Shown one piece after another: positions 11,998 to 37,147 of a stretch of DNA of 64,000 nucleotides. Within the stretch, counting starts at the first letter, position 1. Each line of letters begins with the position of its first letter. Source of the DNA: an uncultured Phycisphaera sp. (GTDB lineage: Bacteria > Planctomycetota > Phycisphaerae > UBA1845). The notes under the pieces are model-generated. The model had not been told where the DNA came from and made no database searches. It saw nothing but the letters and a program-made list of their open reading frames with translations. The position numbers and the translations under genes were made by a program. The stretch is from assembly GCA_964501365.1 (NCBI GenBank), contig CAZCST010000030.1, positions 132,153 to 196,152 on the forward strand, in the 5' to 3' direction.

Positions 11998-12082
11998 TGG
12001 GCGAGGCGGGACTCGAACCCGCACCCAGCTTTCGCCAGAGGGGCTTTTAAGGCCCCAGCGTCTGCCATTCCGCCACTCGCCC
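11998..12082 (-). tRNA. tRNA-Leu (anticodon UAA), class II with long variable arm, no encoded CCA
   Basis: Minus-strand read GGGCGAG TG GCGGAATGGCAGACGC T GGGGC CTTAAAA GCCCC TCTGGCGAAAGCTGGGT GCGGG TTCGAGT CCCGC CTCGCCC A. It has a 7-bp acceptor stem, a Leu-type D arm, anticodon loop CT-TAA-AA and T-loop TTCGAGT. Confidence 0.9.
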
Positions 12083-34576: not shown

Positions 34577-34758
34577 CAGAACATTCACCTTGAAGTTGAA
34601 TGGAACCGTGTTCTACTGGAATCCTACCAGATCGGCCCTTCGAGAATAGCGCCAATCGCGTTGCGGTAAGGTTGTTTTTGCGAAGGCGTGGAACTTCTTT
34701 ACCGGAGCCAGATTTTTCACTCCGCTCAGAATAGTGCATGCGTCACAACGACATCATA

Positions 34759-34800
34759 AAACGGGACAAGGTCGGCGACCCTGATGAGCCGCCGACCTTG
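34759..34800 (-). terminator. Candidate terminator after the TadG/vWA gene (11-bp stem)
   Basis: caaggtcggcg (34767-34777) pairs with cgccgaccttg (34790-34800). On the minus strand tcccGTTTTatg follows, so the T-run is short. Confidence 0.45.
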
Positions 34801-34834: not shown

Positions 34835-36505
34835 CTATTCGATCAGCGCGGCGAAACCCATCGTACCGATCGTACGGAAAATTTGGCGAAGCTGTGCTGT
34901 GTATTCCGCCGAGGTGCCGGCCGCGAAGAACTCCTGGCCGCCGGTCATTTCCGCGATTTCCTGCATGACCTGTCGGTCCGCCAGCGATCCCACGCTGATG
35001 GTGTAGACCGGGATATGGAGATCCGCCGCCTGTTGGGCGATGGTCGTGGCATTCGGTCCCGCATTCGATTCGCCGTCTGACAGAAGCACGATCATCGGTC
35101 TGGCGTCGTCCCTGCCACGGGCAGCCAGTTCATTGAGCGCCAGCTGAAGCCCACCACCGATATTCGTGTTGGGGTCGTAGTAATTCGGCTGCCTGACCTT
35201 CAATCTGTCGGCGATGGATTGGCGATCTTCCGTAAGATTCAGCTCGTGCCGCGCAGTCGTCGCAAAGACTTCCAGCGACATCTGGTCAAAATTACGGGTC
35301 ACGTCCACCATTGCCTGCAGCCCCTGCTTGATGCTCTGCGATGGTTCGACTGGCGTATGTGTCAAATCGGTTTCGCTGTACGAATTCCGGCGATCCAGCA
35401 TGTACTGCACAACCGTCTTGACGCCGAATCGAAACTTGAATTGTGAGTTTTCGTCGGTCAACCTGTTGTTATTGCCCGTGGACCAGTCGATATAATCCGC
35501 CCAGGTCCAGTTCTTGCGGACGGCCGGGTAGGCGGCCCAAGTCAGCTCACTGCTTCCAATGGTCGTGTCACTCCCACTGCTGGGGTGCCATTCTGCGAGT
35601 CCAAGCATGACAGCGACGCGGTTGGGCCAGGTGGACGAACTGCTGCTGTTCATGATCGTGCTGCGCCGACTCGCGTTGTATCCGCGGGCAGTCAGGCTCG
35701 TGGTGATGGCGGCTATTGTGCACGGGGCGTTGTTGGGAATGTACCAAAGCCCCGGATCGGTCGTCGGGTTATAGGAGGAAGTGATCGCACTTCCCCAGGT
35801 ATTCATGATGCCATAAGCCGGGCCGGTGTCGTTCTTATATTCCGACTGATCTTCGGCAACGGGCACATAATTTGCACTTGGCGCGGGTCCGTCCATGGAC
35901 GCCCAGACATCACGCATGTTCACCTGGGCAATATCACGATAATAGCGCAACTCGCTGTCATACTTCATCGAACCCGACAGATCCACGACGACGGCGATGT
36001 CGCGGGCGCCAGTCAGCCCCGCCGTGGCGGACGCCTGCACATTGGCGGTATGTTTGCCGAAAATTCCCGCGAAGAAGAGATTGGTGGGTCCATTGACCGA
36101 TCCCGCGGACTTCCGGATGGTAACGCGGACCGCGTCAGGAAACGTGGTCGTCGGGGTGAAATCGTAATGATTGGTGTCTTCGTTGTAGTCGATTTGACCG
36201 AAAACCAGATCGTCAGCACCGACTTGCAGGTCGTGGCCAAGCGAAACGTGCCGCTGAATGATGTCGATGGCGGCCTGACGGGCTTTGGAGACACCCGCCG
36301 CGCTTCGATCCTCGGACAGGATGTCCGTCGCGGCCAATGCCCCGGCATCGGCGGCGTTCTGCAGATCTGCACGCGTGTTGTACAACACGCCGACGTCGAC
36401 AGTCAGCGCCGCAAACCCCAGCAGAACCGGGATCAGCACCAGCACCAGGAAGACCACAACGGCTCGCCGCCTGCTGGACCTAGCTTTGGGAGTTGATTGA
36501 TTCAT
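34835..36505 (-). CDS. TadG-like (Flp pilus assembly N-terminal domain) protein with a C-terminal von Willebrand factor A domain
   Basis: N-terminus RRRAVVVFLVLVLIPVLLGFAALTVDVGVLYNTRADLQNAADAGALAA is Tad N-terminal type. vWA MIDAS-like DLSGSM and IVLLSDGESNAG. Confidence 0.7.
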   Translation of the reverse strand: MNQSTPKARSSRRRAVVVFLVLVLIPVLLGFAALTVDVGVLYNTRADLQNAADAGALAATDILSEDRSAAGVSKARQAAIDIIQRHVSLGHDLQVGADDLVFGQIDYNEDTNHYDFTPTTTFPDAVRVTIRKSAGSVNGPTNLFFAGIFGKHTANVQASATAGLTGARDIAVVVDLSGSMKYDSELRYYRDIAQVNMRDVWASMDGPAPSANYVPVAEDQSEYKNDTGPAYGIMNTWGSAITSSYNPTTDPGLWYIPNNAPCTIAAITTSLTARGYNASRRSTIMNSSSSSTWPNRVAVMLGLAEWHPSSGSDTTIGSSELTWAAYPAVRKNWTWADYIDWSTGNNNRLTDENSQFKFRFGVKTVVQYMLDRRNSYSETDLTHTPVEPSQSIKQGLQAMVDVTRNFDQMSLEVFATTARHELNLTEDRQSIADRLKVRQPNYYDPNTNIGGGLQLALNELAARGRDDARPMIVLLSDGESNAGPNATTIAQQAADLHIPVYTISVGSLADRQVMQEIAEMTGGQEFFAAGTSAEYTAQLRQIFRTIGTMGFAALIE

Positions 36506-36564
36506 ATTGGGACGCTCCTTACCCCTCGGGCCAAAAGAATAGTGTTCCTCTCAGTCTTCCCGGG

Positions 36565-36640
36565 CGGCGCGACAATCCGTCATCAGGGCGGACTCAACGC
36601 TTTGCGTCCCAATCTCGCGACTGGTTTGCCTTTGTCTCAG
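36565..36640 (-). promoter_or_regulatory. Candidate c-di-GMP-I (GEMM-I) riboswitch aptamer in the leader of the TadG/vWA gene
   Basis: Minus-strand read GACAAA GGCAAACC AGUC GCGA GAUU GGGACGCAAAGC G UUGAG UCCG CCCUGAUGA CGGA UUGUC GC. It shows the conserved GGCAAACC and GGGACGCAAAGC blocks, a GNRA-capped first hairpin and a second hairpin. AUUGGGACGC (36604-36613) is perfectly complementary to GCGUCCCAAU (36506-36515), which sits between the AAGGAG Shine-Dalgarno and the AUG. Confidence 0.7.
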
Positions 36641-36652
36641 GATGTCAAATTC

Positions 36653-36682
36653 AATCTACGATTTGCGGAACGCAATGTGCAA
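36653..36682 (-). promoter_or_regulatory. Candidate sigma70-type promoter for the riboswitch leader (TTGCAC-N18-TAGATT)
   Basis: On the minus strand, TTGCAC at 36682-36677 and TAGATT at 36658-36653. The predicted transcription start lies about 10 nt upstream of the aptamer. Confidence 0.3.
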
Positions 36683-36775: not shown

Positions 36776-37147
36776 CTACTTATCGTACTCAAATTCCCCG
36801 CCAACGAGGAATCCCTTCAGACCAACGACGCAGTGCGTTACACGAACCTTTAGCCAGGGATGCGACAGAGTGTCCGCACCGTCTCGAAGATAGATCGTTT
36901 CACCCAGTTCGACTTTTTTTCGGATCCAAAAACTCACGCCGCCCAGCGAGATGTCATGTGTTGAAACCTGCGTCGTCTCCTCAGCCGCCGGATCCCGTCG
37001 CAAATCCATCCAGTTGTCATTTCGCAGCCGGGACTTCTTCCGCTTTCCCGCATACTTGTCGGGCCGCCCGGTTCGCGTGGCCGCGGAAACCAGTCGCTTC
37101 ACTTCCTCTTTGCCCCCCAATGCCAGTGTTGCCTGCGTCATGATCAC
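36776..37147 (-). CDS. PilZ domain protein (c-di-GMP receptor family)
   Basis: RxxxR (RKKSR) followed about 25 residues later by DxSxxG (DISLGG). Confidence 0.7.
   Translation of the reverse strand: MIMTQATLALGGKEEVKRLVSAATRTGRPDKYAGKRKKSRLRNDNWMDLRRDPAAEETTQVSTHDISLGGVSFWIRKKVELGETIYLRDGADTLSHPWLKVRVTHCVVGLKGFLVGGEFEYDK

Follow-up and report, generated by a model that had tools for sequence, protein, structure and literature searches.

The 64,000-nt stretch of an uncultured Phycisphaera sp. genome analysed here (contig CAZCST010000030.1; the whole stretch is called the window below) carries, ahead of a gene for a TadG-like protein with a C-terminal von Willebrand factor A (VWA) domain, what is almost certainly a genuine class I aptamer for cyclic di-GMP (c-di-GMP), to judge from its sequence. 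One strand of the aptamer core, AUUGGGACGC (36613-36604), is the exact reverse complement of GCGUCCCAAU (36515-36506), a segment at the ribosome binding site (RBS) of the gene that we call the anti-aptamer box. The two probably form a translational ON switch, in which a core/box helix would close the RBS until c-di-GMP is bound; we infer both the direction of regulation and the translational level of control. The elements on which the argument turns are the following:

36560..36640 (-): c-di-GMP-I aptamer, a full-length match to the RF01051 covariance model
36624-36619 paired with 36614-36609 (-): helix P1b, with a GCGA loop at 36618-36615
36610-36604 (-): GGGACGC core (pocket strand), within the RF01051 alignment
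36600-36566 (-): span of helix P2, from the RF01051 alignment
36604..36613 (-): switching strand AUUGGGACGC, made of the 3′ half of P1b and the conserved junction/pocket strand
36515..36520 (-): Shine-Dalgarno (SD) sequence AAGGAG, from sequence
36506..36515 (-): anti-aptamer box GCGUCCCAAU, from the last SD base to the base preceding the AUG
36505-36503 (-): AUG of the TadG/VWA gene, from sequence
34835..36505 (-): regulated gene, encoding a TadG-like protein of 556 aa with a C-terminal VWA domain, from Pfam

The aptamer and its ligand signature

The RF01051 (c-di-GMP-I) model matches the element over positions 1-87 of 87 with 53.0 bits, against a gathering threshold of 35, and with an E-value of 1.6e-7 that refers to 64 kb searched against 4227 Rfam families. 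A preliminary description of the window had proposed this family and named cmsearch with RF01051 beforehand as the test that could refute it, and the proposal came through. Besides the c-di-GMP-I element, the Rfam matches in the window consist of a single tRNA. This sole other structured RNA is a tRNA-Leu (anticodon UAA) at 11998-12082 (-).

Measured against the Rfam consensus, which was used as the yardstick in place of the Vc2 core sequence given in the preliminary description, the anatomy is complete: P1b with its GNRA loop lies between GGCAAAC and GGGACGCAAAGC, and the junction-closing P2 hairpin is present. By covariance-model alignment, the equivalents of G20, A47 and C92 are G36630, A36603 and C36564, of which we take A47 to be the nucleotide that intercalates in the class I ligand pocket. 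G20 and C92 are known to make base-specific ligand contacts in the class I aptamer (PMC6140456).

Relatives were gathered as 159 loci around homologues of the TadG/VWA protein, labelled Phycisphaerae/Planctomycetota (L numbers below). Seventeen of these loci hold 23 Rfam-confirmed aptamers of the c-di-GMP-I clan, and 25 homologous leaders with an aptamer, all from Phycisphaerae/Planctomycetota contigs, were available for comparison. Across the 23 homologous aptamers, the equivalents of G20, A47 and C92 are invariant, save for an A at position 20 in L156b. Their helices covary, with 94.8% of the cells paired, 8 two-sided pair changes and 0/500 shuffles scoring as high: P1b has 99.3% of its cells paired and 4 of its 6 pairs changed on both sides, P2 has 92% and 4 such pairs. 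Our own covariance model built from these 23 aptamers (R1, alignment A2) scores the window aptamer at 92.8 bits.

It seems very unlikely that the aptamer is a specificity variant, of the RF03167 (c-di-GMP-I-GGC) kind or the GEMM-Ib kind that senses cyclic GMP-AMP (cGAMP), with a ligand other than c-di-GMP. RF03167 belongs to the same clan, has a very similar consensus and a short P2, and is the best match of the window by E-value in the local search; several relatives even exceed its cut-off (60-63 bits against 59). The window itself, however, scores 55.9 bits on it, under the gathering value of 59, and reads GACGCAAAGC where the RF03167 consensus is GACGCGAAgC, with an A after GACGC and not the G47 of the GGC variant. 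The form GACGC-A-AA is common to the window and all its relatives, as opposed to GACGC-G-AA in the RF03167 consensus. A GGC-variant identity was rejected on both grounds, score and diagnostic base, and a cGAMP identity because position 20 of the window is a G (36630), where cGAMP riboswitches have an A (PMC6140456).

Two structural features lend the variant idea some weight. First, the window aptamer aligns to the model with a deletion at the canonical 11-nt tetraloop-receptor positions, and its GNRA loop is GCGA; docking of the loop into a receptor in P2 is a trait of the Vc2 type and not family-wide, and a conserved GAGUCC/GGAUUG segment in the aptamer could offer an alternative docking place for a GYRA loop. 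The second feature, which also counts against the main reading, is at the A48·U90 position (pair 44:86): where most family members carry a U, the window has a C. The bases concerned, 36601/36566 (A2 columns 44, 86), are A·C in the window and 15 others; A·U is the combination of the family consensus and of 7 of the 23 homologues. Set against this are a PilZ-like neighbour and an adhesin-like target, both in agreement with c-di-GMP biology. Since A follows GACGC and position 20 is G, the ligand signature of the window is canonical, and c-di-GMP is the predicted ligand.

Two observations on relatives touch the same diagnostic positions. The aptamers at L110:290-375, L154:2369-2450 and L146:2370-2449 pass the RF03167 gathering threshold though they have the canonical A at the diagnostic position, and automatic annotation could mislabel such aptamers of the clade as RF03167. 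In L156b, the aptamer at L156:2365-2503, the G20 position is taken by an A (AAAAGCAAACC), the base of GEMM-Ib; this aptamer still reaches 54.7 bits on RF01051, and its decayed RBS box reads GCAUUCAAAU. The copy is either losing function or a specificity variant, the A20 being the point that speaks for variation in the clade.

Pairing between the aptamer core and the ribosome binding site

The 10-nt complement between aptamer core and RBS region, first pointed out in the preliminary description, is exact on the minus strand. It had been placed exactly between SD and AUG: it does reach the base before the AUG, but at its other end it shares one base with the SD, the final G of AAGGAG. The spacer itself measures 270 nt from the stop of the upstream open reading frame (ORF; 36776) to the AUG, as had been given; mechanical ORFs overlap it, but none is supported as a gene.

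Such a match is not expected by chance, as a 28-mer drawn at random from the window contains a perfect complement of at least 10 nt to the 81-nt aptamer in about 0.2-0.3% of draws, and only 1 of 300 shuffles of the 3′ tail gives a core-to-RBS-window pairing in the minimum free energy (MFE) structure. The helix of box and switching strand has 10 bp and a duplex energy of -17.8 kcal/mol. It is part of the predicted ligand-free MFE structure of the leader, with pair probabilities of 0.76-1.0, and in the ligand-free ensemble the SD-AUG spacer has a predicted probability of being unpaired of 0.05. When the aptamer fold is forced, the predicted mean accessibility of positions -14 to +3 rises from 0.39 to 0.61. 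Folding of both conformers thus gives the picture anticipated earlier, with the RBS helix in the ligand-free fold and a more accessible RBS in the aptamer-forced one.

Aptamer and RBS helix are mutually exclusive because both use nucleotides 36613-36604, and this part of the preliminary description is borne out by the shared nucleotides and by the ligand-free MFE and ensemble, and more strongly by the occurrence of the box in 21/25 leaders together with some covariation of the outer pairs. Forcing the aptamer fold is calculated to cost 7.7 kcal/mol in the window and between 1.1 and 11.2 kcal/mol across 23 leaders. The dissociation constant (Kd) of Vc2 for c-di-GMP is reported as picomolar (PMC6140456), so that a penalty of 7.7 kcal/mol would be within the order that the ligand can pay, a rough argument given that the folding energies leave out tertiary contacts.

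The homologous leaders carry most of the weight. Their start codons were set independently of the box, by database gene calls or by the N-terminus of the protein. A 13-nt aptamer segment was paired with positions -20 to +3 at a threshold of -12 kcal/mol, and 465 further SD-preceded ATG starts from the same contigs were the controls. Duplexes at or below the threshold are found in 21 of the 25 leaders (median -15.8 kcal/mol) versus about 3 of the 465 control starts. The box between SD and AUG reads CGUCC(C/U) in 21/25 leaders, and the seven core pairs of the helix persist in 18-20 of 22 distinct leaders. Further out, the pairs vary as A-U/G•U/G-C/C-G and U-A/A-U/G•U, tracking the variable P1b strand. 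The window, L157 and L064 have A-U, L145-147 and L159 have G•U and L152 has G-C; in L149 a U-A pair becomes A-U, in L154b the helix is lengthened to 11 bp, and in L080a CCGUGGG is paired with CCCAUGG.

Mean pairwise identity of the box is 0.86, next to 0.83 for the aptamer, and falls to 0.67 in the SD heptamer, 0.63 in the first 60 nt of the coding sequence (CDS) and 0.52 in the linker. Two leaders serve as natural controls: L077b, where the aptamer core has decayed, and L156b, with A at position 20, and in both the box has decayed too. The degenerate aptamer, at L077:3818-3970, scores 32 bits on our own model and has GCGGCGU for GGGACGC and GCACACC as its box; an intact copy at 1640-1790 adjoins it. 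Aptamer-less Tad genes within the same loci have no box.

We regard it as highly improbable that conservation of the CGUCCC box has nothing to do with the aptamer and reflects another cause (a clade-specific initiation signal, a protein or small RNA site, or the shared descent of duplicated cassettes), with the complementarity as a by-product. The leaders are indeed related by descent and tandem cassettes are common, and complementarity of the core is not demonstrable by covariation because the aptamer core is invariant. Against this view, the linker, the SD heptamer and the early CDS are far more diverged than the box, and comparable pairing is rare at other SD-preceded starts of the same contigs. 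The outer pairs, moreover, follow the changes in P1b (L152, L149, L154b and L080a, as given above), and in L027 a distant riboswitch ahead of a different gene is likewise accompanied by a complementary stretch, GUGUCUCC, at the RBS.

The L027 element is a Planctomycetia c-di-GMP-I aptamer (L027:1398-1527) with a different P2, ahead of an unrelated ORF of 238 aa. Between SD and AUG it has GUGUCUCC, which complements the core GGGGACGC if two G•U pairs are allowed, a hint of a wider use of the core/RBS design. On a rather doubtful reading, which goes with the proposal on H2 given below, a six-base box beside any start codon would suffice for a c-di-GMP ON switch to evolve, as the pocket strand is invariant in the family, and the arrangement may then be widespread, L027 with another gene and another P2 being a further case. 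Tandem cassettes of riboswitch and TadG-like gene, with two aptamers each, occur in L064, L080, L110, L154, L156 and L157. In the window the cassette is single. The aptamer is present in orthologues with as little as about 49% identity and in some farther paralogues. Searches with filters off and E up to 10 found no aptamer in the distant full-length orthologues L001-L016 and nothing credible as a relic aptamer upstream of control genes with box-like RBSs.

The mechanism that we propose runs as follows. The TadG/VWA gene would form a transcription unit by itself, driven by a conserved sigma-70-like promoter, preceded by a 5′ untranslated region (UTR) of about 140 nt and closed by a terminator hairpin. 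The UTR would begin with a canonical class I aptamer whose strand 36613-36604 can pair alternatively with GCGUCCCAAU. Without ligand, the 10-bp helix would be the thermodynamically preferred fold and would bury the SD-AUG spacer, so that binding of the 30S subunit would be blocked and translation off. Bound c-di-GMP would stabilise the aptamer, which would retain its own strand and free the box for translation to start; at high c-di-GMP, more of the Tad-type VWA protein, which contains a metal ion-dependent adhesion site (MIDAS), would be made. The ON reading draws its support from the box in 21/25 leaders, its identity, the outer covariation, the paired decay of aptamer and box and the ligand-free helix.

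Several points weigh against this reading. In the OFF fold as predicted, the SD hexamer is for the most part free (mean probability of being unpaired 0.83), the modelled helix covering the SD-AUG spacer more than the SD proper. The leader as a whole has a fold of no exceptional stability (z = -1.16), the free MFE structure lacks the core-RBS pairing in 7 of 23 leaders, and a local GNRA hairpin, formed earlier in transcription, has to give way to the alternative helix. The covariation score of the box helix is modest (0.144 versus 0.100 shuffled, 0/500 as high; 0.109 when slid by +2) and comes from alignments that were anchored on the box by the analyst (compact A4 and A6, fitted to the helices); in the MAFFT alignment of full leaders (A3) the box is split into two registers, as box-AUG spacing varies between 0 and 4 nt. 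True covariation is confined to 2-3 outer pairs because the aptamer side is near-invariant, and the leader counts are not independent events because many leaders are paralogues or orthologues. L065 and L080b have clean aptamers and no box.

Some of these points could be taken to favour a real aptamer that acts at another level or in another direction, through Rho-dependent termination, mRNA stability or an OFF response, with the box helix incidental or secondary, which we consider unlikely. The largely unpaired SD hexamer fits such a view, as do hairpin H2 and a conserved 5′ (A)CAUCC (both described below), elements without an assigned part in the box mechanism; Vc1 and Vc2 themselves have no apparent terminator or anti-SD sequence, and their mechanism is described as unclear (PMC4744006). 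An incidental box, on the other hand, should not be conserved like the aptamer while its flanks diverge, nor be missing at aptamer-less Tad genes and decayed in two leaders with a decayed or altered aptamer. The consensus promoter/terminator scanner found no intrinsic terminator in the leader, and stabilisation of the aptamer by ligand can only release the box and never sequester it, both points against such alternatives.

Hairpin H2, the transcription unit and its neighbours

The features outside the core/box pair are:

36677..36682 (-): -35-like hexamer TTGCAC, from sequence and positional conservation
36653..36658 (-): -10-like hexamer TAGATT, preceded by a conserved TCG, 18 nt after TTGCAC
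36524..36563 (-): hairpin H2, starting at the nucleotide directly 3′ of the C92 equivalent
36563-36559 paired with 36530-36524 (-): outer stem of H2, CCGGG with CCCG-A-GG
36554-36546 paired with 36539-36531 (-): inner stem of H2, CUGAGAGGA with UUCUUUUGG
34756..34800 (-): probable intrinsic terminator, a 15-bp GC-rich hairpin (34800-34767) followed by U-rich UCCCGUUUUAU
36776..37147 (-): upstream PilZ-like ORF of 123 aa, outside riboswitch control, from Pfam and motifs

H2 is predicted in both the free MFE and the aptamer-forced fold of the window, and an equivalent of it, formed with the downstream linker segment, is predicted in 25/25 leaders. It covaries strongly in an alignment anchored by the predicted duplex, 7 of 7 pairs being changed on both sides (score 0.575 versus 0.298 shuffled, 0/500 as high). 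Its position after the C92 equivalent and its covariation add to what the preliminary description had noticed. H2 occupies the place where the canonical closing helix P1a would be. A P1a candidate can be drawn in the window, CCUG(A)G with C-CGGG (-6.9 kcal/mol), and the same 3′ strand forms H2; in most relatives such candidates are weak or absent (+0.3 to -4.7 kcal/mol). A short canonical P1a covaries in a second riboswitch group (group B) and in L027. H2 may compete with P1a, substitute for it or merely bring the box near the core. A rather doubtful proposal is that the aptamer of this clade represents a topological variant, in which a constitutive 3′-side H2 replaces P1a and the GGGACGC pocket strand, not a P1 strand, switches by way of the CGUCCC box.

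The second c-di-GMP-I group, with a different P2 and a covarying P1a, consists of L102, L108, L109, L111, L113, L120, L123, L136 and L143. At least in L136 and L143 the aptamer precedes a small ORF that starts M-x-VC(V/I)SSL and lies upstream of genes with TadG-like N-termini. The SD of these leaders may be covered by a GCAACC...GGUUGU hairpin, in which case their platform would be of another kind.

Upstream of the aptamer, the TTGCAC-N18-TAGATT pair reported earlier is exactly at its positions. The pattern TTGnnn-N16-18-TAnnnT, usually preceded by TCG, recurs at a fixed distance from the aptamer in 20/25 leaders, (a)TCG-TAnnnT lying 18-24 nt ahead of the GCAAAC anchor in relatives. The promoter call is thus upheld by positional conservation, though the consensus promoter scanner found no promoter in the leader region, which it missed because TTGCAC matches 3 of 6 consensus positions. 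Transcription is predicted to start at about 36646-36644. The predicted 5′ end of the mRNA, (A)CAUCC at 36646-36641 (-), is conserved in relatives in sequence and not by covariation; it is similar to an anti-SD-like UCCU, and GGAUUGU of P2 is another potential pairing partner for it.

The probable terminator lies 35 nt past the TadG/VWA stop, and its hairpin has a stability of -31.3 kcal/mol (z = -6.0, 0/200 shuffles as stable); the pattern scanner missed this hairpin (34800-34756). A terminator-like site at 36950-36933, inside the PilZ-like ORF, was discarded as being at the chance level of the scan. The next genes on the minus strand, for a low-molecular-weight phosphatase, a deaminase and BamA, are unrelated, and this, together with the terminator after the stop, is why the regulated unit is probably the TadG/VWA gene alone.

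That the downstream gene is of the TadG/VWA type, as described before, is confirmed by Pfam: VWA (3.7e-17), Tad (PF13400; 1.4e-9) and Tad_C (1.4e-7) all match above their cut-offs. A MIDAS-type DLSGS motif (DxSxS) is conserved in 60 homologues, with D175 invariant and S177 and S179 nearly so, and the protein is probably involved in adhesion.

The upstream ORF had been called a PilZ gene. Its own match to PilZ (PF07238) stays below the cut-off (19.3 against 22.5 bits, E 0.0015), but the binding motifs are present as RKKSR (RxxxR) and DISLGG (DxSxxG), R36, R40, S67 and G70 are invariant in 7 orthologues, and 6 of these 7 match the PilZ model (best E 2.4e-5). We therefore treat it as a candidate divergent PilZ-like c-di-GMP receptor. 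A sequence-profile search of PDB with this ORF returned only a spurious sybody match, and NCBIfam gave nothing above cut-off for either this ORF or the TadG/VWA protein. Synteny between the ORF and the riboswitch-TadG/VWA unit extends to close relatives, so that a candidate protein sensor of c-di-GMP adjoins the RNA one.

Relation to known systems

A mechanistic parallel is the add adenine riboswitch of Vibrio vulnificus, a translational ON switch under thermodynamic control in which a strand serves either the aptamer or an RBS-occluding helix and the ligand frees the RBS. The same exclusive logic is predicted here, with another ligand and another fold, and switching would fall to the pocket strand in the interior (GGGACGC together with the 3′ half of P1b) and not to the 3′ strand of P1.

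Class I c-di-GMP riboswitches and c-di-GMP ON switches ahead of adhesin or pilus genes are already established. For c-di-GMP riboswitches in Planctomycetota, or upstream of TadG-like genes, we found no report among the open-access papers searched, which is no proof of novelty. In Phycisphaerae/Planctomycetota, the riboswitch of the window would place synthesis of a Tad-type VWA protein directly under c-di-GMP. Bc2, a class I riboswitch of the Bacillus cereus group, precedes the collagen adhesin gene cbpA/cap and is reported to turn on transcription as c-di-GMP rises (PMC7423583). Bc2 and the window element thus share a class I aptamer combined with an adhesin or adhesin-like gene; they differ in that the window leader has no terminator and relies on predicted RBS pairing, and in phylum and target protein family. 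Cdi-2-4 of Clostridioides difficile, an ON switch for the type IV pilin gene pilA1 that promotes adherence, likewise precedes a gene of the type IV-filament type, as the predicted switch of the window does, but it belongs to another aptamer class and fold (c-di-GMP-II) and works by transcription read-through versus termination and not by RBS occlusion (PMC6366702).

With Vc2 and RF01051 the window aptamer shares the GGCAAAC...GNRA...GGGACGCAAAGC core, P1b and P2 and the equivalents of G20, A47 and C92 (PMC6140456). It departs from Vc2 in a P2 that lacks the 11-nt tetraloop-receptor positions and in GYRA loops (GCGA, GUAA, GCAA) where Vc2 has GAAA (PMC11705072), as well as in a weak or unclear P1a with the covarying 3′ hairpin H2 in its place. 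The approximately 25 natural variants, with their exceptions, decayed copies and the A20 variant, amount to a mutational series on a core that would double as switching strand, and the same series could reveal whether H2 competes with P1a or substitutes for it. Compared with Vc1 and Vc2, whose expression platforms are described as unclear (PMC4744006), the window element would provide a class I example with an explicit, comparatively supported translational ON platform, the predicted pairing of the aptamer core with the RBS.

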